Notes: generated by a model from the sequence alone, not told the origin. A stretch of 11,911 nt of DNA from Acinetobacter geminorum (GCF_013009345.1 NZ_JABELE010000007.1:166704-178614), one strand, 5' to 3'. Numbered from the stretch's first letter, positions 808 through 11,911 are shown. A program made the numbers and translations.

Positions 808-1782
808 TTAAATGGCATTACCGCACATGTCTGTTGTGCCCTGAGGGTAGCTAAACTGTAGCGCATTACGGTCAGTAATGAGTTCATTAGACAACTCTTG
901 TCCAAATAATTGTTCAGCATCTATTGATATAGCACTTGAGACAGAAAAGCTTATATTCTCAAGTGGAGCGGGTAAAGTAGATTTATATCCCTGATCAACA
1001 CCGTTTACGATAAAGCCAACCTGCTTAGTGTTTTGATTAATATATATGCCTAATCTCTGGTATCCATTTGAACTATTTGTCATGTTTTGACCCTTATAAT
1101 ATGGATTGTCAGGCCCGCTATTATCACTAAGTCGATAAGCTACAGAATAGTATAATCTAGCAGGATTCTCACCAAAATCTGGATCATAAGTGCCCATATT
1201 AAACCAATAGTTGGACCTAACTGTATAGCCATTATTTGTTACGCCATTAAAACCAATGGCAGAGGAGTAATAAGCAGAATTACCAAGTGATGAGTTCCCA
1301 AGAGCTGAGGTTGGAATCTTAAGCTCCATTTCAAATGCAATAATCCCTGTGTGAGGTATTATTAAATCACCAATGTCATTAGTCGAATTAAGGCTAGCTT
1401 TACTTCTAGCTACATACTCTACAGTACCATACTCATTTTCTGGCATAGGCTCTACTTTAAGACTAAATTTTTGGCCCGTTACCAATGGGAATATTTTCAT
1501 AGACCAATAGTCAGAGTGTTCATTATTCCAAAGATCATAATCTTCTTGAGTCGCGTCAAAATTATATTTGCAGACTGGGGCAGAGGAATTAAGGGAATTC
1601 GTTTGAGCTAATAGCATCTGTGGTGCTAATTTTTCATTCTTTGTAGTGGATGAAATGCTTTTAGATGCTACTTTTTGGCTAGATTCATTACCCAGTGCTG
1701 TATTGGTATTATCAGAAGATACTTCATACATTGCCCAACATAATGTCACTGCACTAACAGCAATTAAGCCTATTTTTTTCAT
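808..1782 (-). CDS. Secreted protein of unknown function (324 aa), beta-rich, Asn/Ser/Gly/Tyr-rich
   Basis: ATG at 1782 with GGAA 7 nt upstream. N-terminal signal peptide MKKIGLIAVSAVTLCWAMYEV. Two distal Cys (APVCKYNF near the N-terminus, DMCGNAI at the C-terminus) could form one disulfide. No motif that I can assign to a family; it may correspond to an Acinetobacter-restricted DUF family, unverified. Confidence 0.7.
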   Translation of the reverse strand: MKKIGLIAVSAVTLCWAMYEVSSDNTNTALGNESSQKVASKSISSTTKNEKLAPQMLLAQTNSLNSSAPVCKYNFDATQEDYDLWNNEHSDYWSMKIFPLVTGQKFSLKVEPMPENEYGTVEYVARSKASLNSTNDIGDLIIPHTGIIAFEMELKIPTSALGNSSLGNSAYYSSAIGFNGVTNNGYTVRSNYWFNMGTYDPDFGENPARLYYSVAYRLSDNSGPDNPYYKGQNMTNSSNGYQRLGIYINQNTKQVGFIVNGVDQGYKSTLPAPLENISFSVSSAISIDAEQLFGQELSNELITDRNALQFSYPQGTTDMCGNAI

Positions 1783-1879
1783 AAATGTTCCTATCGAGTT
1801 AAGTATTAAATTTTTAGAAAGTAGCGATAAAGCAAAATTTATTATTAATATTTAAATATTTGAAATTATGAAGTTTATA

Positions 1880-1913
1880 AACTATTGAATATGATTAATC
1901 ATATTCAATAGTT
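1880..1913. repeat. Perfect 34-bp palindrome (17-bp arms, no spacer) spanning the adhesin stop codon; possible operon-end hairpin
   Basis: aactattgaatatgatt|aatcatattcaatagtt equals its own reverse complement (checked base by base). The right arm encodes the last residues ..TIEYD* of the adhesin gene; the left arm is intergenic. There is no clean U-run after it on the minus strand, so terminator function is uncertain. Confidence 0.9.
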
Positions 1914-2905
1914 ACAGTAGCCATTGCACGCACTTTACCAGCAGTCACATTTGTTGCTGTTTGATAGTAGCGAGCAGTCATCGGTACGTTATATTGAATT
2001 GTCTGGTTAGAAGACAATGTACCTAAGGCTAATTTGTCACCTTTTTTGATGACCTGATTTTTATTTTGATAATTCCAGAGTAACTGTACACCTACGCCGT
2101 TTGCTTTTTCAGATGCGGCAGCCGTATTTGCCAATACCTGATTGTTTGTTCCATCTTGGGTAAAGTCGTAAGTTAAACTAATGAGATTTTTCTCTTCGTA
2201 ACCTGTTGGGTTGATACCGCCATTACAGAGAATGTTCATATCAAAGGTTTGTTCACCTTGAGTAGAACCAACACCTTTGAAGCCAGCCTTTGTAACTGTT
2301 GGTAATTGTACAACTTTATTAATATTACCTTGAATTTCACATGAAGATGATGCAATTGTAATGGCATTGGCATTGACAGTACTTGTTAAGAAGGGTTGAT
2401 TAGGAAAGCCCCGAATATAATAACTACTATACCTGCCTGGTACTAAGGTTCCAGAACCTGTTTGTGGGGCAATTTTAATAATTTCTACCACAAAGTAACC
2501 TGATGCTAAATAACGTCTACCAGATATTCCTCCACGTACATAAGGATAATAGCCAGAAAAATTAGTATTATTCTCGGCTTCACGATATAGGCGAATACCA
2601 ATACCGGGAATATTAGTAGTATAAATGCTATTGCCTAAAGGGCTTAAAGGATAAGCTTGGGTTAATTCTGCAACTACTGCATCACTATAGTCACAGTACC
2701 AAGCTTCTGTACTAGTACGACTAATAGGAAAAGTCGCTTTTCTTAAAATAGCACCGACTGGGTCGCTTGGACGCACAACAACACGCCCCACAGCCATAAG
2801 GACGTCATTTTTTTCATAATCATATATACGACAGGCAGCCTTAGCCTCGCCATAAATCCCAAGACCAGCGGTAAATAGAGCACCCGTTAATAATATTCTT
2901 TTCAT
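1895..2905 (-). CDS. Fimbrial tip adhesin-type subunit (two-domain: N-terminal putative receptor-binding domain plus C-terminal pilin domain)
   Basis: 336 aa, about twice pilin size, and the last gene of the operon. Its ATG overlaps the usher stop (ATGA at 2902-2905). Signal peptide MKRILLTGALFTAGLGIYGEAKA. The C-terminal half has the pilin signature SSCEIQG..VQLPTV....F.MNILCNGG and a C-terminal beta strand ATVTIEYD with penultimate Tyr. Confidence 0.8.
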   Translation of the reverse strand: MKRILLTGALFTAGLGIYGEAKAACRIYDYEKNDVLMAVGRVVVRPSDPVGAILRKATFPISRTSTEAWYCDYSDAVVAELTQAYPLSPLGNSIYTTNIPGIGIRLYREAENNTNFSGYYPYVRGGISGRRYLASGYFVVEIIKIAPQTGSGTLVPGRYSSYYIRGFPNQPFLTSTVNANAITIASSSCEIQGNINKVVQLPTVTKAGFKGVGSTQGEQTFDMNILCNGGINPTGYEEKNLISLTYDFTQDGTNNQVLANTAAASEKANGVGVQLLWNYQNKNQVIKKGDKLALGTLSSNQTIQYNVPMTARYYQTATNVTAGKVRAMATVTIEYD

Positions 2906-5460
2906 TTGCAGACAGCCTCAGTCATTACCATGCTTTGTTGCTTATTTTGCAACTGATTACTGATGTTGTACTCAACAGAACAACGTTCATTGCTTTCATC
3001 GCCCCATTTCACATAGAGACGATCTTGAGCAAGTGGAGTACGTAAGTAAATCATACTACCTTGTGCAACAATACCGACAGCTTCATCTTTTTGGTTAAAG
3101 ACTTGAGCTGCAAACGGTAAACTATTGCCATCTACAGTTTTACTATTAATGTAAACTGCATAACCAGTTTTAGTCGCAAAATCTACTTTAGCAATTGCGC
3201 CAGCAAAAGGTGCGATACGTTGACTTGTTTCTTCAAGCTCTACTTGGCTCGACATTTCTTGTGGGTCAAGGGTAATGTCATTAAGACGGTACGGAGTAAC
3301 ATAAGGAACTACCGCATAACCCGCTTTATTCACGCTCAAACCAACAGCATTATTAACTTTTGCTCCTGCAGCTTCTGGCGCATGCACAAGTACCATCGTT
3401 TGGCCTTGCTCAGGTCCAAATAAAATACCTTCTGAGTGTGCAACCACACTACCAGTTAAGCTAACCATTGCTTGTTGGTAAGAATCAGCCACACTATAAG
3501 AACCACCAACAGTTGTATAGTTGGTACGATAACGTCCATTTACGTTAAATGATGGATTTGAATAGTCCTGATGTGACATTGAAGCGCCGTAACTAAAGCG
3601 ATCTCCAACCATACCACTTGCACCAACAGTACGACTGTCTTCAGAAGCAGTAACGTTAACGTTAACTGAATTCTTTTTGAAATCAATCGGGAACGATAAT
3701 GTCATTAAATATTCAGTATCGTGTGTTTGATTGGTTGAGCCATATTCAACTTTACGGTTAATTGCAGATAAACCATAAGTTAAACCATGGAAGTTATTAC
3801 TGTAACCAACCTGATATTGTTTAGTACTTTCACTACGGTTCCAATAATCAACCCAAGAACCTACTACATAGAAGTTACCCCAACCTTCAGGTAAACCTTG
3901 GTTTAAGGTAATTTGGAATTCACTACGTTGACGACCAGCAGAGTAGGTATTAATACCTTTTTCTTCAAAATCACGAATCTGTAGAGCATCACGTAATTTA
4001 TAGAAGTTTTCTGTTGAGTAACGATAAGCTGCTAGTGTTAAGTTTGTGTTGGTTGGAGTAATTAACTTGCTATAACTTAAACGGAAACTTTGTCCTGACT
4101 GTGAAGACTGTTTTTCAAATTCAGCTTCAGAGTGGGTTACATCTAACGCCACGGCACCAATTGGTGTAGCAAAAGCGGCACCCAACAGTATAGCGGCATA
4201 ATTTTCAGTTGCTTGTATGCCTGTATAACCTGTTAGGTAATTATTAATCCCTTGTTGATATTTACCTTGAACAACCCAAGGATCAATATCAATATCTGAA
4301 TCACGGAACTGACCAATAGTTAAAGCATAACGATTCATGCCAGGACGAAGCATCTGCACAACAGATGCATAAGGCACAGCAAATTTCTGTATTTCCCCAT
4401 TCGCTTCGATAACAGAAACTTCAATTTCTCCACCAAAACCAGTAGGGTAAAGGTCATTAATTTCAAAGTTACCTGGTGCTACTGTTGTTTGATAGATAAG
4501 TTGGCCTTGTTGACGAACTTCAACTTTTGCATTGGTTTTAGCATTACCACGAATACGTGGAGCATAACCCACCATACTATTTGGTAACATACGATCATCA
4601 CTTGAGAAATCAATACCGCGATAACCATATGAATCAAATATTTCGCCGTTTGTAAAATTATCACCTAGTGTTAAGACACCTCGGTATTTCGGAAATGCTC
4701 TTTGTAAATATGTACTCGTTTCTTCGTAGCTTGACTTAGATTGATTTTCAGCAGGGGTATCCTGCCATTGCCACTGACCATTATGACGTAATTGCCAACC
4801 ACCTAAATTCAACCCAGCAGTCACTCCCATAAACGCATTTGATGTTTCGCGTATATCGCCAGATTGATTAAAAGTCTTATAAGCACTACCGTTATAAGAT
4901 AAAAATCCAGCATTAATACCACGATCCCATACACTTGGGTCGACATAGCCTTGCGCATTTTTTTGCAAAGCAACTTGCGGAATAGAAATATCTACACGTA
5001 AACGAGAGGTATCAAACTCATAAAATGCATTTTCAACCCACTCTTCAATTTTATAACAACTATTATTTTCTTTTTGAAGGGTAGTGTGTTTAGACAAAAC
5101 ATCTTGTTTAACGCCGTACTCAAGCAGGTTTGTTCCTGTGAAACAGGTTACAGCATTTTTATTTGGATCTAATGCTTTAAAGAACATACGACGTTTGCCA
5201 AACCATTGGCCATTTACATAAACGTCAACATTATATTCACCTGGTAAAACAGGATTACCATATTTAAAACGTGAAATATCAACTTTTTGAGCATCACCAA
5301 TTAAAAAAGCAGAATCAAATTCAGCTTCCACTGGTGCACTCGCGGTTGTTTCTTCAGCATGCACGAATACGGGCATTGTCATTGTGACAACACCAGAAGC
5401 CAAGTAGTAACAAATATGGCGTTTTAATAATTTATAAGATTCTTGCCTTTTTTTTGGCAT
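2902..5460 (-). CDS. Fimbrial outer-membrane usher (PapC/FimD family)
   Basis: 852 aa, with a signal-like N-terminus ending VFVHAEE. Usher N-domain motifs FDSAFL and GEYNVDVYVNG, a long beta-barrel-type sequence rich in G/Y/S/N, and a C-terminal Cys pair (ERCSVEY...EAVCK). Positioned between the chaperone and adhesin genes. Confidence 0.93.
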   Translation of the reverse strand: MPKKRQESYKLLKRHICYYLASGVVTMTMPVFVHAEETTASAPVEAEFDSAFLIGDAQKVDISRFKYGNPVLPGEYNVDVYVNGQWFGKRRMFFKALDPNKNAVTCFTGTNLLEYGVKQDVLSKHTTLQKENNSCYKIEEWVENAFYEFDTSRLRVDISIPQVALQKNAQGYVDPSVWDRGINAGFLSYNGSAYKTFNQSGDIRETSNAFMGVTAGLNLGGWQLRHNGQWQWQDTPAENQSKSSYEETSTYLQRAFPKYRGVLTLGDNFTNGEIFDSYGYRGIDFSSDDRMLPNSMVGYAPRIRGNAKTNAKVEVRQQGQLIYQTTVAPGNFEINDLYPTGFGGEIEVSVIEANGEIQKFAVPYASVVQMLRPGMNRYALTIGQFRDSDIDIDPWVVQGKYQQGINNYLTGYTGIQATENYAAILLGAAFATPIGAVALDVTHSEAEFEKQSSQSGQSFRLSYSKLITPTNTNLTLAAYRYSTENFYKLRDALQIRDFEEKGINTYSAGRQRSEFQITLNQGLPEGWGNFYVVGSWVDYWNRSESTKQYQVGYSNNFHGLTYGLSAINRKVEYGSTNQTHDTEYLMTLSFPIDFKKNSVNVNVTASEDSRTVGASGMVGDRFSYGASMSHQDYSNPSFNVNGRYRTNYTTVGGSYSVADSYQQAMVSLTGSVVAHSEGILFGPEQGQTMVLVHAPEAAGAKVNNAVGLSVNKAGYAVVPYVTPYRLNDITLDPQEMSSQVELEETSQRIAPFAGAIAKVDFATKTGYAVYINSKTVDGNSLPFAAQVFNQKDEAVGIVAQGSMIYLRTPLAQDRLYVKWGDESNERCSVEYNISNQLQNKQQSMVMTEAVCK

Positions 5461-5518
5461 AACTAAGTCCGCCTACTCACATAATAGGTGCTTAAATTTA
5501 TTAAAAAGATAAATCTGA

Positions 5519-6253
5519 TTACTGAAGTTTTATTTGGTGTTCGACTCGACCACCATAGTCATTGACATTCATAAAACTCATATCTTGAAGATTGCCATTC
5601 TTAAGCTGAACAGACTCTTCAGAAAAAGGTTTAATCATTAAACCTTGAGGTAATAAATCAACTTTTTTATCACCTGCCTTTTGGTAAACAGAAGTCATCG
5701 TAATGTGGAAAGGAGTTGGATTTTTTACCGTTAAATTCTGACCAGATTTAACCCATTGAAGCTTATCTGCTGCTAAATTCGCATCTTCTTTAATTGAAGC
5801 CGGACGATAGAAGAATTTGATCCGGGAACGAATTGCAAGTTGTAAGAAGTTATCAGGTGTCGTATCTGCATTTTTTGAGGTAGGTCTTGGTGGAATATCC
5901 AAAACGTTTAACCACAAAACAGTTTCTTGCTTCTGGTTAAATTGAGAAGCATTTGGAAGGGCAGTAATACGAAGCGTCTGACTTTTTGTCGCTTCAACAC
6001 GAGAAATTGGAGGAGCAATCATAAAAGGAACTTTTGATTGATCCGGAGTACTTTTTGGATCACCTTCATCAATCCAAGCTTGGACAAGTGCTGGTTTTGA
6101 ACCGTTATTGCTAACTTGTAGCGTAACTTCTCTAGCATCCGACGGATAAATTACACGGGTGCCATGAATTACAATTTCTGCTTGAGCGGCAGGAGCAGCA
6201 ACAGATGAAGCAAACGCCAAACCTAACAAAAAATTATAACTGTTCAATTTCAT
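5519..6253 (-). CDS. Periplasmic fimbrial chaperone (PapD/FimC family), start moved to the internal Met
   Basis: The ORF track starts at 6337, but MKLNSYNFLLGLAFASSVAAPAAQA (ATG at 6251-6253) is a proper signal peptide giving 244 aa, the normal chaperone size. The upstream 28 codons overlap a terminator hairpin. PapD-like motifs present: IVIHGTRVIYP, QAWID, PPISRVEA..SQTLRI, VLWLNVLDIPP, LQLAIRSRIKFFYRP. Confidence 0.9.
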   Translation of the reverse strand: MKLNSYNFLLGLAFASSVAAPAAQAEIVIHGTRVIYPSDAREVTLQVSNNGSKPALVQAWIDEGDPKSTPDQSKVPFMIAPPISRVEATKSQTLRITALPNASQFNQKQETVLWLNVLDIPPRPTSKNADTTPDNFLQLAIRSRIKFFYRPASIKEDANLAADKLQWVKSGQNLTVKNPTPFHITMTSVYQKAGDKKVDLLPQGLMIKPFSEESVQLKNGNLQDMSFMNVNDYGGRVEHQIKLQ

Positions 6254-6294
6254 TTTTCGAGTTCTCAACCAAGAAAGATTCAGGAAAGTGCTAC

Positions 6295-6330
6295 ACAAAA
6301 CAGGGTTTCCATGCGGACATAGAAACCCCG
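6295..6330 (-). terminator. Intra-operon hairpin/attenuator after the major pilin gene
   Basis: On the minus strand: gggtttc (6328-6322) / gaaaccc (6309-6303), 7-bp stem, 12-nt loop, followed by tgtttt. This is the usual arrangement in chaperone-usher operons, keeping pilin mRNA in excess over chaperone/usher mRNA. Confidence 0.55.
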
Positions 6331-6341
6331 CTATCAATTAA

Positions 6342-6875
6342 TTATTGATAGATAATTGTGTATTGAACAGAAGTAGTTACTTTACCAGCAGTAGAAGCAC
6401 CAGTTGCATAGTATTCAGCATAGTAGTTAAGGTCAGCACTTGCACCTTCAGCTACGTCAACCCATTGAGAGTTAGCTTGAGCACCGTTTGCACCAGCAGC
6501 AAGTACTGGGATGAAGTTGTTGTTGCTACCTAAAAGTTGAACGTTAACGTTTTTAGCACCAGTAGCGTCTGTGTTAAGTAAACGACCAGTATTAAAGTCA
6601 ACGTTAGCACCTGGTTCGAAGTAAGTAGCTACTTTACCTTCAGAACAGTTAGCTAATTTAATTTGGAAAGGAGTACGACCAGCAACATCCCCAGCAACAG
6701 CTAAAGTTTGTTTAGAAACAGTTGGAAGAGTAACTGTCAAGTCTTTACCACCGTTATTAACGATGTCACAAGTTTTGTCTGTAACTAAACCATTAATTGT
6801 AATTGTACCATCAGCAGCTTGAGCATTCGCAATCCCTACAACCGAAAGAGCAGCGATCAAAGCAAGTTTTTTCAT
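6342..6875 (-). CDS. Major fimbrial subunit (type 1 / FimA-family pilin)
   Basis: 177 aa, signal peptide MKKLALIAALSVVGIANAQA. Mature N-terminus ADGTITINGLVTDKTCDI (donor-strand motif plus first Cys), second Cys in KLANCSEG, C-terminal strand TSVQYTIIYQ with penultimate Tyr. First gene of the operon. Confidence 0.9.
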   Translation of the reverse strand: MKKLALIAALSVVGIANAQAADGTITINGLVTDKTCDIVNNGGKDLTVTLPTVSKQTLAVAGDVAGRTPFQIKLANCSEGKVATYFEPGANVDFNTGRLLNTDATGAKNVNVQLLGSNNNFIPVLAAGANGAQANSQWVDVAEGASADLNYYAEYYATGASTAGKVTTSVQYTIIYQ

Positions 6876-7366
6876 AGTGTTTTCTCAAAGGTCTGGATAA
6901 AAGTTTAATTCCTTACTTTTCCAGTGTTTGACATCTTGAAAAGTAATGCCGCAATATTAACACTTCTTAAACAAAATGCAAACTACATCACATTATTTTT
7001 TCATATTTTTAATTTTAACACACAATTTATTTGGAATGTAGAGCTAGTATTTACAACTTATGCAGCTGTTTATAAAAGTTTTTTTGTTTTCTGAAAGAAA
7101 GATGCTATGTAAAAAAGTAAGTTACATAAGAACACTATGAAAATTGAAAAGAATTAAACAATTTATGTGAAAAATAAGCTTAAACTCTTAGAATACAATT
7201 ATATAGAATAAACTGTGTATATGTATACAAAAAAATAGACAAATAGTCATTTTTGATGAAAAAGAGCTAACAAATCATCAATTCATAAAAATGTGCGATG
7301 AATTCGACAAATCACTCTTTTATCCAAGCTTACTAATGAAATAAGCTCAAATATTCTAGTTATAAG

Positions 7367-7657
7367 TTAGTGATAATTGATAAGTACAACCTTGTGATTA
7401 GAACCTATACTTTCAATACTAGTGTCCATTTTCTCAGTGTGTTGAGCTAATTTAAAAAGACTATCTTTATTTAAATATTCATTATCAAGTTTAATATTTA
7501 AATTATTTACATCAACACATTCTATCTCACTATGTTCTCTTGAACACGTATCTTCAACAATATTTCCTCTTATCATTATTGTGTTATTTGCATAACAAAA
7601 TAGTGGGGAAGCGGAAAGCACCATCAAAACAAGAAGTTTAAATATATTATTTTTCAT
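7367..7657 (-). CDS. Small (96 aa) signal-peptide protein with pilin-like N- and C-termini; possible internally deleted pilin remnant
   Basis: ATG at 7657 with AGGT about 10 nt upstream. Signal peptide MKNNIFKLLVLMVLSASPLFCYA. The mature N-terminus NNTIMIRGNIVEDTC matches the pilin pattern TIxIxGxhxxxTC of the neighbouring major pilin (GTITINGLVTDKTC). The C-terminus KVVLINYH resembles the pilin F-strand with penultimate Tyr. About 73 mature residues is too short for a full pilin Ig fold. Very AT-rich, so coding status is uncertain. Confidence 0.4.
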   Translation of the reverse strand: MKNNIFKLLVLMVLSASPLFCYANNTIMIRGNIVEDTCSREHSEIECVDVNNLNIKLDNEYLNKDSLFKLAQHTEKMDTSIESIGSNHKVVLINYH

Positions 7658-7980
7658 TTTATATACCTATTTATAAAATAGCTTATATATAGTTGATACA
7701 TTATTTTTAATTTAAAAACAATCATTAAGCTTAAAATAATAAAAATTATTAATTTTCACGTGATATAAATCACATTAACCATTTTAAATAATGTAATAGT
7801 TAAAATTCTTAAACCATATTAATCCATGTAATTAGTTAAAAATTAAATAATTAATATAAATTATTGATATTTAATTAATTTTTAAAAAATAGATTAATAA
7901 ATCAACTAAATGATATATGATTAAACATATAATTTACTTATTTGATTTATAATTTATGTTTCAAAATTATTACCGAGAAA
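7658..7980. other. Extremely AT-rich tract (putative curved / nucleoid-protein-bound regulatory DNA)
   Basis: Hand count: 41 G/C in the 300 nt 7681-7980 (about 14% G+C) and 13 G/C in 7801-7920 (about 11%). No ORF of 60 aa or more on either strand. Confidence 0.7.
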
Positions 7981-8421
7981 TAAAATATGGATTTTAATAA
8001 AAATGTGACCAAATATACATTATCGAAGCAATGTGTAATTAAATTTGCTTTATATTGTAGATCCTGAGTATATAAGATCTAATGAATTAGAATTTAGCAT
8101 ACACTTTAAATATTTTAGGAAAATGAACTAACGAAATATAATTCGTAGATTCCTTTGGATTTAGGTAGGAGAAAAGTTCAATAAAAATCAAACAAGCGAT
8201 TATTAGCCGAACCTAATCATAATTTCTATTTAATTAGATTTATGAATACTATTTATTATGCATCAATAGCAACTTCAGAAGATGCTAGTGCTGAATTTAA
8301 TTAGAATAAAGATTCATTCCACATAGCTAAAACGTACCACAATAGCTAGAAAGAGAAATAAGTACTACAAACAAATGAAGGATAGCTACCAAGCTATGGG
8401 TCAATATTGAATTATATGACT

Positions 8422-8505
8422 GTTCGTATAATGTGATGCACAGATTATGTTACTAAGCCCCAGTGAGAACATTGTTAGTCTCACGGGGCTTTTTAACATC
8501 AATCT
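8422..8505 (+). repeat. Left copy of the 84-nt direct repeat (junction with chromosomal DNA)
   Basis: gttcgTataatgtgatgcacagattatgttactaagccccagtgagaacattgttagtctcacggggctttttaacatcaatct. 83/84 identical to 11828-11911; the only difference is T8427 versus C11833. Sequences immediately upstream of the two copies are unrelated. Confidence 0.95.
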
Positions 8506-8517
8506 GCATTATGCGAA
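8423..8517 (+). other. About 95-nt imperfect (forked) hairpin carrying inverted dif-like half-sites: putative ssDNA attP and/or packaging signal
   Basis: Pairing checked by hand. 8423-8433 pairs with 8507-8517 (XerC-arm-like TTCG(T/C)ATAATG). A 7-nt bulge follows at 8434-8440. 8441-8446 pairs with 8501-8506, with a 1-nt bulge at c8500. 8447-8452 pairs with 8494-8499, followed by 2 mismatches. 8455-8461 pairs with 8485-8491, with a bulge at a8462. 8463-8468 pairs with 8479-8484, closing a 10-nt loop. Confidence 0.65.
8457..8494 (+). terminator. Rho-independent terminator-like hairpin forming the tip of the att/packaging hairpin
   Basis: gcccc(a)gtgaga - 10-nt loop - tctcacggggc followed by ttttt (8490-8494). 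In the circular phage map it sits just after the last + strand ORF, as the f1 packaging-signal hairpin doubles as the gene IV terminator. Confidence 0.6.
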
Positions 8518-8533
8518 TTTGAAGCCGAGGCGG

Positions 8534-8578
8534 GGAGTCCACGTCTTCTAATGGTGGACTCTAGTCCGAAATTTCGGA
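8534..8578 (+). other. Ff-type (+)-strand origin core: nick-site hairpin plus adjacent Rep-binding palindrome
   Basis: ggagtccacgt (8534-8544) and gtggactct (8554-8562) are identical to the f1 origin core as I recall it (GGAGTCCACGTTCTTTAATAGTGGACTCTTGTTCCAAACTGGAACAA). Same 8-bp stem and the same 11-nt loop length (gtcttctaatg versus GTTCTTTAATA). A second inverted repeat, tccgaaatttcgga (8565-8578), follows immediately. Confidence 0.75.
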
Positions 8579-8582
8579 ATTT

Positions 8583-8795
8583 TTATAGATCTTTTGCGTT
8601 TCTTACAACTACTTTTCCATGTGCTGATATCTCAACATTTTCTATAGCTTGATCAAGGATGATGTGTACAAGCTCACTATCCTTGATCGGCTGTAGATTT
8701 TTATTGATCAGAATTTTATTGAGCTCTACACACTTCTTTCGTAGAGATTCTTGCTCTTTGTCATTTAAACGAACTGTTACTGCCATTTTCGTCAC
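8583..8795 (-). CDS. Small DNA-binding regulator, probably ribbon-helix-helix (Arc/CopG-like) phage repressor
   Basis: 70 aa, divergent from rep. The N-terminus (M)AVTVRLNDKEQESLRKKCVELNKIL fits a beta-strand followed by helix A, and DSELVHIILDQAIENV fits helix B. The listed start at 8795 is GTG; an ATG at 8786 (MAVTVRL, 67 aa) is an alternative. No good SD for either. Confidence 0.55.
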   Translation of the reverse strand: MTKMAVTVRLNDKEQESLRKKCVELNKILINKNLQPIKDSELVHIILDQAIENVEISAHGKVVVRNAKDL

Positions 8796-8915: not shown

Positions 8916-9800
8916 ATGCTAGATCATATTTGCATAAATGCGCCTTTTGAATCCAGCTTCTACTCAGTAGATGCGGAAGGGCGTTATTTTTTTGTAGATA
9001 TCGATCTTCACAGTATAGAAATACCGCTTGCTTCTCGTTCTGTTCATAAGAATGACGATGGTTCAATTTCTGCTGCTGCGTTATTCCATCCGTTTGAGTC
9101 GGTTCCGACTCATTACACTGGTATGGCAATGAAAGTTTTTTTTGATTCTTCGTATGAACCTTTTGTACAGATCAAGGCTTCTCCTGCGAAATTGCTGCAA
9201 GGGCATAATGTCTTTGGCAGCGACAACATAGAGCAGGGTGCTATGGAAATGATCGGCTTCTTACATGAAGCTTATCCGCTTCTTGCAAGGATGCTAGATT
9301 GGCCTCGTGCATGGGTTTCACATATTGATGTGACTTACTCAGTACGATTGAAAGACCAGAACACAGCTAAAAAAGTTTTGGATTTCTTGAGCAATGTCAG
9401 CAATGGCCAGACTCGTTTAAGTAACAAGCGTTTCGACAGTTCAGTATATTGGGGAGGTCAGACTTCAAGACTTGTGAATCACAAGTGTTATATGAAGCAT
9501 GACGAATTTATCGCTCAATTTGAGGAGTATAAGCAACTTGCAAAGAAGAACGATAAAGCAGCTCAACGAGTTGTTGATGTCATGTCCAATTCGGATCTGA
9601 TTAACTGGACTGTCGGTCTTTTACGTTTTGAATCACGTTTAAAAAAACGTTGGCTTGAACGTAATGGAATTCCTACCAATCTCAGTTATGAAACCTTTTG
9701 TTTAGGGGCCTCTTATGCTCGACCGTGGATTATTTTTGTAGGCATGTTAACTGCCTTCTTCATTGTCACTGGACATTATCGAGGGGGTAGTAATGATTAG
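8916..9800 (+). CDS. Rolling-circle replication initiator, filamentous-phage gene II (gpII / Phage_CRI) family, C-terminally short
   Basis: Motifs shared with f1 gpII as I recall it: HPFESVPTHYTG (f1 HPFESLPTHYSG), IKASPAKLLQGHNVFG (f1 IKASPAKVLQGHNVFG), NVSNGQT, LLRFESRLKKRWL..GIPTNL (f1 LVRFEARIKTRYL..GLPLNL). Candidate catalytic region SSVYWGGQTSR....YMKHDE. It is 294 aa versus 410 aa for f1 gpII. An in-frame stop lies 6 nt upstream of the ATG, so the start is fixed. Confidence 0.9.
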   Translation: MLDHICINAPFESSFYSVDAEGRYFFVDIDLHSIEIPLASRSVHKNDDGSISAAALFHPFESVPTHYTGMAMKVFFDSSYEPFVQIKASPAKLLQGHNVFGSDNIEQGAMEMIGFLHEAYPLLARMLDWPRAWVSHIDVTYSVRLKDQNTAKKVLDFLSNVSNGQTRLSNKRFDSSVYWGGQTSRLVNHKCYMKHDEFIAQFEEYKQLAKKNDKAAQRVVDVMSNSDLINWTVGLLRFESRLKKRWLERNGIPTNLSYETFCLGASYARPWIIFVGMLTAFFIVTGHYRGGSND

Positions 9801-10083
9801 AGGATTAATATTTTTATTGATGTATGTAGGCGAGAAATTCTTAACTACTGCATTTAAAAAATTATTGGCTGGTGCAGGTTTGGGACTTGTTTCATTTGCA
9901 ATTTCACAGTCAGTTTTTTCAATTTTACTTAACTATGTAAACAATCAATTTCAGCAGCTTTCAGGTCTATTTTATTTAATTGACCTTGCGGGGGTTGATG
10001 TTGCTATCAGCTATATTTTGTCTGCAATTTCAATACGCATAACAATGAACGCGGGCAAATTATCGATTAGGAAACTACAATAA
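9793..10083 (+). CDS. Small hydrophobic virion/assembly protein, pVI / Ace-like (96 aa from the ATG)
   Basis: The ORF track starts at a TTG (9763). ATG at 9793 is preceded by GAGGGGG (9781-9787), giving MIRGLIFLLMYVG.... It has several hydrophobic segments, is similar in size to f1 pVI (112 aa) and CTXphi Ace (97 aa), and sits immediately upstream of the pI/Zot gene with a TAATG stop/start overlap at 10081-10085. Confidence 0.65.
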   Translation: MIRGLIFLLMYVGEKFLTTAFKKLLAGAGLGLVSFAISQSVFSILLNYVNNQFQQLSGLFYLIDLAGVDVAISYILSAISIRITMNAGKLSIRKLQ

Positions 10084-11567
10084 TGTTATACGCTATCATT
10101 GCAAAGCCTGGTCAGGGGAAATCATATTTTGCTGTTGTTCGTATGTATGAAGAGCAGCAAAAAAATTTAGAAAATCTTAAAAAGAATGCTCCTATTTTTG
10201 AAGAAAATAGAAAGTTACTAGAAGATCGTGATCTACTAAAACGTGATTTTACGTATACCTATGAGCTAGGTGATAAAACACTTCAAAAAACCTCTAATCA
10301 TGAAGATTTCGATGTGTTGGAGGATGCGGAGCAGTTTGAGGAATATTTCGAATATTACTTTTTTTATAATAAATATATTGAGCAGATTACCAAAGAGGAA
10401 GGAATTGCATTAACTGCATTGCTTCCAGTAAGGCAAATTTATTCAAATATTAACGGTTTAAAAATTGCAGGTGTTTTGCCATTTCCAGATATTGACTGGC
10501 GTAAAACTCCGATGGGTTCTATTCATTACATTGATGAGATTCGTAGACGTCCTCCTTACAAATGGGAAGGCCGAGTACCATCTCAAGATCCAATTATTTT
10601 AGGTATGTCTGAGGTGCGTCATACCGATAAAGATGTATGGCTTATTTCTCAAGATGCAGAAGATTTAAACTATTCGCTTAGACAGTTAATCGATAAGCTG
10701 TATTTTGTTAAAAGACCACCTCAAAACCCACAGGCTTGCGGTATTTATGTATTCGATAAATATCTTAGTCGCCCACGTGATGCAGCAGATTCACAACGCG
10801 ATCCGAAGAAGTATGTTGATTATTTTCTGTTAGTTTATAAAAAGAAATTTCAACGCATGTATGTTAGTGCATCTTCTCATACATCAATGAAATTCAGGAT
10901 TTCGCCAAAAGTATTTGCATACATATTTTTGTTTTTTGCCATATTAACGATTGCCATTGTCGGCTTTATGAAAATACCTATTTTTCAAAGTTTTGGCAGT
11001 GCAATTAAGCAAATGACAGGACAGGAAAAAGATGCATTTAGTCAATTACAGTCGGGACCTCAAGTTGCTGATGACAAGTCGAAATCTATGGCTGACAAAT
11101 TAAAATATGAAGCTGAGTGCGGTACTTTAACACCAGAACAATGTGCTGATTTGAAGAATCCAGAAGTCAGAAATAATCAACTACAGCAAGTAAATGATGT
11201 TCGTATGGAGACAATTGCAGTCAAGTACAATCCGAATAGGCCTTATGATGTTGATACTTCAAAGATTGAGTATCAAGTGACGTCTAAGCCTGTATTTGCG
11301 GGCTGTATGAAGAAAAAAGGTAGATATGTTGCTTACACTGAACAGGGCACAATTTTGCATGATGTGAGCCAGTCAGACTGTGCGAAACTGATTGAAGATA
11401 ATGACCGTCCGTACAACTACTTTAAGCAGCAATCACAAGGTTTTTCGCAACCACAGCAGGCACAACAATTGCCACAGCAACCACAACAAGCTGATTACCC
11501 GTCTCGATATAAAGAGGCTGAAATTATCGCTAAGTACGAGGCAGCAAAACAGCAAGGCTTAATTTAA
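10083..11567 (+). CDS. zot: Filamentous-phage assembly ATPase, pI / Zot family
   Basis: N-terminal Walker A AKPGQGKS (residues 7-14) and Walker B HYIDE (148-152). DVWLISQD matches f1 pI DIIFLVQD. One TM helix VFAYIFLFFAILTIAIVGFM (277-296) is followed by a ~198-aa C-terminal domain. AGGAA lies 10 nt upstream, and the start is coupled to the previous gene. Confidence 0.92.
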   Translation: MLYAIIAKPGQGKSYFAVVRMYEEQQKNLENLKKNAPIFEENRKLLEDRDLLKRDFTYTYELGDKTLQKTSNHEDFDVLEDAEQFEEYFEYYFFYNKYIEQITKEEGIALTALLPVRQIYSNINGLKIAGVLPFPDIDWRKTPMGSIHYIDEIRRRPPYKWEGRVPSQDPIILGMSEVRHTDKDVWLISQDAEDLNYSLRQLIDKLYFVKRPPQNPQACGIYVFDKYLSRPRDAADSQRDPKKYVDYFLLVYKKKFQRMYVSASSHTSMKFRISPKVFAYIFLFFAILTIAIVGFMKIPIFQSFGSAIKQMTGQEKDAFSQLQSGPQVADDKSKSMADKLKYEAECGTLTPEQCADLKNPEVRNNQLQQVNDVRMETIAVKYNPNRPYDVDTSKIEYQVTSKPVFAGCMKKKGRYVAYTEQGTILHDVSQSDCAKLIEDNDRPYNYFKQQSQGFSQPQQAQQLPQQPQQADYPSRYKEAEIIAKYEAAKQQGLI

Positions 11568-11709: not shown

Positions 11710-11726
11710 TTTGGCGGGTGGGATAT

Positions 11727-11825
11727 ATGACAAATGATGATATTGCTTTAGTACTTTTTTTGATTTTTATCTTTTTTGCAGCCCTCTACTATGTTTTGAA
11801 ATCCATTAAAGAAACTTCGCTCTGA
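11727..11825 (+). CDS. 32-aa hydrophobic peptide, candidate small coat protein (pVII/pIX/pVIII-like)
   Basis: Not in the ORF track (too short). ATG at 11727 is preceded by gggtggg. Translation: MTNDDIALVLFLIFIFFAALYYVLKSIKETSL, with an acidic N-terminus, a 19-residue hydrophobic core and a Lys-containing C-terminus. Stop at 11823-11825, 2 nt before the repeat. Short ORFs are easily spurious. Confidence 0.4.
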   Translation: MTNDDIALVLFLIFIFFAALYYVLKSIKETSL

Positions 11826-11827
11826 AA

Positions 11828-11911
11828 GTTCGCATAATGTGATGCACAGATTATGTTACTAAGCCCCAGTGAGAACATTGTTAGTCTCACGGGGCTTTTT
11901 AACATCAATCT
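11828..11911 (+). repeat. Right copy of the 84-nt direct repeat, truncated by the window edge
   Basis: Same sequence as 8422-8505, offset 3,406 bp, with C at 11833. It starts 2 nt after the stop of the 32-aa ORF. Confidence 0.95.
11863..11900 (+). terminator. Second copy of the same terminator-like hairpin, directly downstream of the 32-aa ORF and zot
   Basis: Identical sequence to 8457-8494 (offset 3,406). Hairpin plus T5 about 40 nt after the stop at 11825. Confidence 0.6.

Follow-up and report, generated by a model that had tools for sequence, protein, structure and literature searches.

A 95-base imperfect hairpin on the plus strand of an 11,911-nt stretch of the Acinetobacter geminorum chromosome (NZ_JABELE010000007.1:166704-178614; hereafter the window) is very probably the attachment site of a filamentous phage (inovirus) that carries no recombinase of its own and enters the chromosomal dif site by means of XerC and XerD, recombinases of the host, in the manner of CTXphi. 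An earlier note on this DNA had proposed a CTXphi-style attP at this position, and each feature of such a site that can be checked in sequence was observed, including the lack of a phage recombinase, the position at dif, both XerC junctions, compensatory base changes and asymmetric centres. The copy that the note had singled out does contain an attP-type hairpin, though the segment 8421-8519 is, judged by its sequence, a post-integration hybrid in which a host XerC arm is joined to the phage remainder, rather than an intact attP; the phage-type copy begins at 11827.

A dif-like hairpin at the host dif

The fold was evaluated with DNA parameters on the plus strand of 8415-8525 (111 nt), with 200 dinucleotide-preserving shuffles as the null. 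The segment reached -25.8 kcal/mol compared to -8.5 +/- 2.2 kcal/mol for the shuffles (z = -7.9; 0/200 as good), and the long imperfect hairpin claimed at 8423-8517 formed with the pairing that had been listed for it. At the base of the stem, 8423-8433 pairs with 8507-8517 (11 bp, including a T8427.G8513 wobble), above which are found a 7-nt bulge (TGATGCA, 8434-8440), an upper arm in which 8441-8452 pairs with 8494-8506 with C8500 bulged, and a tip consisting of a 13-bp stem, a 10-nt loop and a T5 run. A search of Rfam at permissive thresholds returned no family matching the hairpin.

In terms of a Xer site, the top strand reads TGTTCGTATAA / TGTGATGCACAGA / TTATGTTACTA and the bottom strand, in the minus reading, is AATTCGCATAA / TGCAGA / TTGATGTTAAA. 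The top strand opens with a host-derived XerC-binding arm (8421-8431, plus strand), the same 11-mer as in the empty dif, followed by a 13-nt centre (8432-8444, plus) in which TG and CAGA are paired and TGATGCA is bulged, and by a XerD-like arm (8445-8455, plus), of which 8445-8452 pairs with 8494-8502 and which is identical to the dif XerD arm TTATGTTAAAT at 9/11 positions. The bottom strand supplies a XerC-binding arm that is phage-derived according to the fold and sequence comparison (8509-8519, minus), a 6-nt centre that covaries with the top strand (8503-8508, minus), and a XerD-like arm whose extra G corresponds to the bulged C8500 (8492-8502, minus). The centres are therefore unequal, 13 nt on the top strand and 6 nt on the bottom strand, or 6(+1) with the extra base. 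The first three nucleotides of the long centre (TGT) match the start of the host dif centre TGTATA. The claim that the site exists only when folded stood for the 5′ arm, where the crossover lies and where the linear duplex has a 13-bp spacer, but not for the 3′ arm, which as plain duplex is a near-canonical inverted site, TTCGCATAA-TGCAGA-TTGATGTTAA, with a 6-nt spacer and one additional base in the XerD arm. The motif TTCGYATAATG occurs three times in the window, every time in a hairpin arm (0.00 expected by chance).

Using exact-protein look-ups, the same chromosomal neighbourhood was collected from many assemblies (comparison loci, L numbers). Two of these loci (L005 and L011) hold an empty site, ...ATTATATGAC-TGTTCGTATAA-TGTATA-TTATGTTAAAT-AGGATATC..., located between the fimbrial operon and the adeC/adeABC-adeRS genes, and the chromosomal flank directly left of dif in the window (8380-8420; ...GGGTCAATATTGAATTATATGAC) is identical to the left flank of these empty sites. 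The empty site shares 26/28 bases with GATTCGTATAATGTATATTATGTTAAAT, which Carnoy and Roten predicted as the dif of A. baylyi ADP1 (PMC2731167), and occurs ~2.0 Mb into one 3.88-Mb contig, a placement that suggests a terminus position. By these sequence comparisons, the hairpin sits exactly at the host chromosomal dif; the comparison with the host dif that had been proposed earlier located dif at the hairpin junction itself and not elsewhere in the genome.

At the left junction (window, L002 and L013), the host flank continues through the host XerC arm TGTTCGTATAA directly into the 13-nt centre TGTGATGCACAGA, and junctions of this type, host XerC arm plus hairpin remainder, were identified in the window, L002, L007, L013, L082 and L084-L093. 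A second copy of the hairpin (11823-11911, plus strand; 97% identical) is found 3406 bp downstream and runs past the window end. From 11827 onwards this copy is attP-type, lies at the boundary to the next unit, and has a XerC arm of the phage type, AGTTCGCATAA, fully complementary to the 3′ arm; all copies in relatives that are preceded by the end of the morphogenesis module (M-end) carry the same arm. The presence of this second copy with a phage-type arm indicates a tandem array, of which the window holds the first unit and whose right end is beyond the window. The full-length equivalent of the second copy (L002:11740-11850) folds at -29.6 kcal/mol (z = -9.4), and phage-type hairpins from three lineages had z values of -9.4, -9.2 and -6.0.

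The host XerC arm differs from the phage arm of the second copy and of the M-end-flanked copies of relatives at two positions, while the two window copies are identical everywhere to the right of the arm. Two differences between host and phage, T/C at arm position 7 and A/G at centre position 4, confine the crossover to the 7-nt interval ATAA/TGT (the slash marking the arm/centre border). XerC cuts the dif top strand at a point lying within this interval. The right junction, J, in which the phage XerC arm is followed by the host centre and host XerD arm, reads ...CTGAAAG-TTCGCATAA-TGTATA-TTATGTTAAAT-host in L080 and L081, and in L081 is positioned directly 3′ of a complete coat/pIII-like/pVI-like/Zot module. 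Left and J junctions occur together on one chromosomal contig in L082, a decayed prophage of Acinetobacter sp. ANC 5054. In several hosts, and for two phage lineages that are unrelated to each other, chromosome gives way to phage precisely at the arm/centre border, and no junction on the other arm of the hairpin or in the other orientation was found at any mapped locus. The homologous elements have dif-type junctions at their flanks rather than the integrase-type att sites that the earlier note had weighed as an alternative. Some hairpins are preceded by the XerC arm of other dif-like sites, at the end of a replication module (R-end/hairpin junctions), indicating repeated hairpin entry into whatever dif is present. 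A scan of metagenomes for J gave five matches, two of which look phage-derived and three of which are probably native dif sites of other bacteria.

Exceptions to the linkage between arm and flank were also observed (L020 at 5643, L016 at 2099, L022 at 6481, and others), where XerC-arm position 7 (C/T; position 5 of TTCGYATAA) and the two outer bases are not always linked to the upstream flank, with some M-ends possessing host-type arms and some R-ends possessing C-type arms. The sequences of these mismatched arms suggest conversion inside the arm or repeated exchanges.

A search pattern that constrains only the 5′ arm, TTCGYATAATGTG-N(1-9)-AGATTATGT, was found in 64 viral contigs, comprising 40 distinct hairpins of several classes; in the species-representative genome collection it was found in only two genomes, those of Acinetobacter sp. 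ANC 5054 and A. lactucae. For 24 representative sequences, the lower stem is 98.6% paired, compared to ~35% (23-41%) with slid partners. Each segment has one position at which both sides have changed, C:G/T:A in the XerC arm, C:G/A:T in the centre (CAGA/TCTG versus AAGA/TCTT) and T:A/A:T in the XerD arm. Variation in the 5′ arm of the 40 hairpin variants is mostly in the bulge, and the 1-nt bulge equivalent to C8500 is kept in most hairpin classes. At the same dif in L007, an unrelated phage with a Rep_trans initiator has a hairpin of the same plan, in which the tip is different, the bulge is 4 nt long (TGTG) and TGCC replaces TGCA in a compensated centre. No recombinase family was matched by the proteins of the window or of its intact relative L002, which encodes a Rep (PF05144), DUF2523, Zot-like, coat-like and pIII-like proteins, and small open reading frames (ORFs).

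A second dif-like site and the structure of the arrays

Intact relatives possess, between the replication (R) and morphogenesis (M) modules, a duplex dif-like site, S, of the form R-end-TTCGTATAA-TGTATA-ATATGTAAATA. In L002, S is at 7259-7297 and has the complete dif centre TGTATA, the site there being read as CACTTCGTATAA-TGTATA-ATATGTAAATA. The window lacks S as a result of a 3.15-kb internal deletion, the junction of which (9676-9683, with short microhomology) joins L002 positions 6444 and 9595 in a blastn comparison of the window with L002, a near-identical intact prophage (99.98% identity) that served as the reference for deletion mapping. Lost with it were the C-terminal part of Rep, a 107-aa ORF, site S, the coat gene and the greater part of the pIII-like gene, and the truncated Rep is now fused to the sequence immediately 5′ of the DUF2523 gene. 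The first unit in the window is incapable of making Rep or virion proteins and could at best be copied in trans from a downstream unit. An independent deletion of like extent and array position occurs in another phage lineage (L088 and L093), with its endpoint 1321 nt from the hairpin start compared to 1260 nt; repeated loss of the Rep C-terminus, S, coat and pIII from first units may be under selection.

Across all loci, the sequence before a XerC arm is host flank, R-end or M-end, the sequence after it is the hairpin remainder, the right half of S or the host right half, and six of these nine combinations occur. The host/S junction was found 0 times among all mapped arrays and 0 times in a direct search with the A. 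baumannii host flank joined to S, and no M-end/S junction was seen across all loci. Apparent host/S junctions in L020, L024, L049 and L061 were rejected, as the longer context consisted of replication-module ends and not of host sequence. An arrangement of the VGJphi type, with a duplex attP and a left end of host XerC arm plus phage right half, was found neither in the window nor in its relatives.

The majority of arrays take the form hostL-H′-R-S-M-H-R-S′-hostR (L002, L007 and L089), where H denotes the hairpin and S′ consists of an R-end arm with the host centre and host XerD arm. Other loci have H′-R-S′ only (L085, L091 and L092) or tandem or mixed forms (L051 and L088). These forms could arise from hairpin integration combined with Xer recombination between S and the regenerated dif, or with entry of the replicative form at S′. 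The same R-end is joined to a dozen M starts and three hairpin classes, which identifies both Xer sites as mosaic breakpoints. The best candidate for a circular or tandem free genome form is L083 (A. lactucae NZ_JABVBF010000187.1, 6334 bp), in which an exact 127-nt terminal overlap yields a 6,207-bp circle or tandem unit carrying a phage-type H and S. Phage M02 (L001, OQ693633), deposited as a 'circular complete genome', was dropped as proof of a free genome; the record runs from S to S′, includes ~290 bp of host flank, and its ends duplicate 141 nt (1-141 and 5817-5959).

The dif region had further features of its own. The empty-site dif is the 5′ arm of a ~150-nt hairpin (L005 9085-9238, minus strand; DNA free energy -40.2 kcal/mol, z = -10.6), also present in L002 (13831-13990), L018, L022, L030 and L082, the 3′ arm of which is a degenerate dif in inverted orientation (other strand, ATTTCTGCATAA-CTTATA-TTATGTTACTT); Acinetobacter sp. 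ANC 5054 has a like arrangement with different inner loops. This dif hairpin may be left over from an older hairpin element, or it may have a function. In L008, L012 and L014, islands with two or three Phage_integrase-family genes start right after the XerD arm of an intact dif, marking dif in these strains as a hotspot for non-inovirus elements as well. On the left side of dif, the AT-rich region at 7000-8400 of the window (18-30% GC) contains a 96-aa ORF of phage family phrog_25569, and in some strains among L084-L093 the 'host' flank ~30-170 bp left of the hairpin junction resembles a phage replication-module end (tcaaagacctaggtg...acacaacag); the DNA left of dif may have been assembled from earlier insertions, now decayed.

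A broader proposal, of which we are slightly more doubtful than convinced, is that two kinds of Xer site operate in one inovirus genome, a CTX-type hairpin before the replication module and a VGJ-like duplex S after it. XerC and XerD could then insert the phage irreversibly via the hairpin, remove the morphogenesis module by recombining S with the regenerated dif and so leave RS1-like replication-only elements, let the replicative form enter or leave at S, and swap modules between unrelated phages as a phage counterpart of the plasmid pdif modules, with the dif of several Acinetobacter species being the arm of a ~150-nt hairpin, as a relic or with a role of its own.

Proposed route of integration and its alternatives

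The strand carrying the gene polarity, the plus strand, is the packaged strand in Ff and CTXphi. With the phage genes on the plus strand throughout, the small divergent ORF excepted, this strand would be the one packaged here. The packaged single strand would fold such that the two inverted dif-like half-sites pair, building a XerC arm, a 6-bp centre with seven extra unpaired bases on the top strand, and a XerD arm at canonical spacing. XerC and XerD would bind the rebuilt arms, and XerC alone would cut the top strand at the arm/centre border, in the 5′ arm of the hairpin and in dif alike, after which the phage TGT would pair with the dif bottom strand and a single strand pair would be exchanged. 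Replication would resolve this intermediate into a prophage with its left end at 8421-8519 and a working dif at its right end, giving the predicted product hostL-(host XerC arm / rest of hairpin)-phage-(phage XerC arm / host centre + host XerD arm)-hostR. The left junction, with its 13-bp spacer, should be inert as duplex, which would make integration irreversible at the left end, and, as with CTXphi, new phage genomes would be made by rolling-circle replication that crosses tandem units. Both XerC and XerD of A. baumannii are canonical, and XerC cleaves dif without FtsK (bioRxiv 10.1101/2024.04.09.588662).

Several observations weigh against this route or its premises. Plus and minus strand fold energies are equal for window-type hairpins, so the plus strand is not singled out, and a cruciform in the duplex replicative form would leave identical junctions. 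Right ends were made by S rather than J in 13/13 cases in the first 78 loci, and with most arrays ending in S′, extra Xer events must be assumed. The extent and duplicated ends of the M02 record imply that it was cut from a prophage array with wrong boundaries, which removes it as independent proof. The identity of the site as the terminus dif rests on the match to the ADP1 dif and the ~2.0/3.88 Mb position in one contig, while GC skew and FtsK orienting polar sequences over 20 kb around the empty site gave no terminus signal either way.

Both the equal folding of the two strands and the identical junctions fit an integration from double-stranded DNA, through a cruciform extruded from the supercoiled replicative form or through XerC acting on the duplex 5′ arm with a putative activator from phage or host (compare TLCphi/VGJphi and XafT/XafV); Xer activation factors are encoded beside attP in vibrio phages (bioRxiv 10.64898/2026.06.12.731946), and the small ORF at 8583-8795 is 65 nt away from the hairpin. 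We nevertheless consider a double-stranded substrate unlikely, as the 5′ arm presents a 13-bp spacer in linear duplex, a symmetric cruciform would offer two hairpins whereas the single orientation and arm in use fit one packaged strand, and the architecture copies that of the CTXphi attP, for which use of single-stranded DNA has been demonstrated (PMC3089051). Somewhat less probable again is that S is the true attachment site, of the VGJphi type, and that the hairpin junctions are secondary rearrangements. The complete TGTATA centre of S and the predominance of S-derived right ends (R-end / host centre + XerD arm) would be accounted for, but the host/S junction that is obligatory for primary entry of S into a naive dif is absent from every mapped array, all left ends are host/hairpin, J junctions exist, and the array in the window retains its hairpin junction with no S in the first unit.

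There is very little likelihood that the hairpin is merely a terminator, a packaging signal or a complementary-strand origin, with its likeness to dif and its position incidental. Its location and form do recall Ff signals: in intact units it is 3′ of the last morphogenesis ORF, no other hairpin of the phage intergenic region is as large, and its tip (8455-8494, plus strand; AAGCCCC-A-GTGAGA / TCTCACGGGGCTT) has a GC-rich stem (AAGCCCC.../...GGGGCTT) followed by T5. A terminator role for the tip is plausible, though a scan for consensus terminators passed over it, with its 10-nt loop and internal bulge, and called 8565-8578 instead. As the sole explanation, however, a signal is already contradicted by the junction data, with a boundary that recurs at the arm/centre border in several hosts and two unrelated lineages, arms swapped as Xer exchange predicts, and an arm motif expected 0.00 times by chance; such roles could coexist with attachment. 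The segment called by the scan, 8565-8578, is located between the hairpin and the point where the divergent small ORF ends; it consists of a terminator-like palindrome (TCCGAAATTTCGGA) plus a T run and could be a bidirectional terminator.

Gene content, related systems and significance

The window is Acinetobacter chromosome on its left side, with the 3′ part of a zinc alcohol dehydrogenase gene (50-754) and a chaperone-usher fimbrial operon (808-6875, minus strand), followed by the AT-rich stretch and the hairpin. The small divergent ORF (8583-8795, minus; 67-70 aa, phrog_5642) occupies the position of the CTXphi rstR-like regulator and accompanies the hairpin in every related array; AlphaFold gave a poor model for the 67-aa ORF (predicted local distance difference test score, 56), from which no function was assigned. 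Downstream are an Ff-type rolling-circle Rep (8916-9800, plus; PF05144, E = 4e-50) of 294 aa with a foreign tail, compared to the intact 407-aa protein of L002, a DUF2523/pVI-like minor coat protein (9793-10083, plus) recognised by domain and phage-family matches, and a Zot-like, pI-like assembly ATPase (10083-11567, plus; phrog_197, E = 3.6e-42). A look-up of the truncated Rep, meant to reach DNA past 11911, found no exact-protein record. At 494 aa, the Zot-like protein exceeds the ~350-400 aa of its relatives and has a glutamine/proline-rich repetitive C-terminal tail, QPQQAQQLPQQPQQ (window 11440-11500), with direct repeats at 11447-11491. The morphogenesis module ends with a small hydrophobic ORF (11718-11825, plus), the stop of which is 3 nt 5′ of TTCGCATAA and 1 nt 5′ of the 11-mer arm. 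ORFs of this kind (32-36 aa) always stop a few nucleotides 5′ of the hairpin XerC arm, as in M02 (~3775-3885) and L082 (~2140-2243), with the stop codon (cTGAaag) inside the conserved M-end context and positional counterparts in other relatives.

The CTXphi attP(+) was reportedly described by Val et al. in 2005 as a forked hairpin of attP1 and attP2. Both CTXphi and the Acinetobacter phage are recombinase-less filamentous phages with two inverted dif-like sites that fold in the plus strand, form tandem arrays, and have a divergent small ORF in regulator position and a Rep beside the site. In CTXphi, attP1 is AGTGCGTATTA-TGTGGCGCGGCA-TTATGTTGAGG with a 12-nt centre, attP2 has a 7-nt centre and the dif1 centre is TGTATG (PMC3089051), such that a long centre is opposed to a short one in both systems (12/7 nt in CTXphi, 13/6(+1) nt here), both long centres start with TGTG, and homology to the dif centre, which starts with TGT in both, is confined to the XerC side. 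The left junction of host XerC arm plus hairpin and the right junction of a regenerated dif are likewise shared. The Acinetobacter case differs in the genus and its dif, with a TGTATA centre, in the distance between half-sites (~40 nt with a terminator-like tip, compared to ~90 nt in CTXphi), in the Rep, which is Ff-type PF05144 or, in the sister lineage, Rep_trans, and in the additional duplex dif-like site; the function of the site in Acinetobacter is predicted from sequence.

Outside the vibrios, attP features for integration of single-stranded DNA have been reported for CUS-1phi of E. coli and YpfPhi of Yersinia pestis (PMC3089051), both of which form tandem arrays according to work cited in PMC11209303; these non-vibrio prophages at dif are likened here by description only. 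The CTX-type idea had therefore already extended beyond Vibrio, and the Acinetobacter case is not the first outside that genus. Site S resembles the attachment sites of VGJphi-type phages (VGJ, VEJ, VSK, fs2 and f237) in that it is a single dif-like site in duplex form, combines a good XerC arm with a XerD arm that is degenerate, and recombines with dif-type sites, but it coexists with a hairpin and has a 6-bp centre identical to that of dif, whereas VGJ-type centres are 7 nt (PMC3089051). The arrays consisting of hairpin, regulator-position ORF, Rep and small ORF, alone at dif (L085, L091 and L092) or in tandem (L051 and L088), recall the CTXphi satellite RS1 and RS2, though in Acinetobacter a plain Xer deletion from S to a regenerated dif can produce them; an rstC-like antirepressor was identified in none of these replication-only elements.

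Less closely related systems share parts of the scheme. Integron attC sites (compare PMC4792948) are folded single-stranded DNA with extrahelical bases, at which a tyrosine recombinase exchanges one strand pair and replication resolves the product, but the recombinase is IntI and the sites are unrelated to dif. The pdif modules of Acinetobacter plasmids use the same host recombinases and similar arms (ATTTCGTATAA / TTATGTTAAAT) and combine Xer-bounded modules in mixed arrangements, but are duplex sites with 6-bp centres that give cointegration rather than excision (bioRxiv 10.1101/2024.04.09.588662). The hairpin resembles the Ff packaging signal by its intergenic position only. A study of A. 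baumannii filamentous phages described prophages flanked by replication modules, supposed the use of XerCD and dif by analogy, and reports no attP, dif junction or hairpin (PMC11209303); a search of the literature on Acinetobacter inoviruses, XerCD or integrative mobile elements exploiting Xer found nothing beyond it. CTX-type and VGJ-type sites are assigned to different elements in a 2026 preprint (bioRxiv 10.64898/2026.06.12.731946), and the literature found describes no genome with both. The kind of hairpin is already known, while the two-site architecture, which is seen outside the window, may be new.

Integration of a single-stranded DNA hairpin by XerCD has been demonstrated for CTXphi only and inferred for two enterobacterial phages, to which the Acinetobacter phages add a large family. 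Public genomes hold the full series of natural products, from the empty dif through both junctions to satellite-like remnants and tandem or mixed arrays, from which the rules of compatibility between hairpin and dif can be read in sequence and tested with the existing purified A. baumannii XerC and XerD. The junctions also provide exact prophage boundaries for annotation, including for the mis-delimited GenBank record of phage M02, and they mark dif in an Acinetobacter pathogen as a busy entry point for mobile DNA adjoining the adeABC efflux locus.

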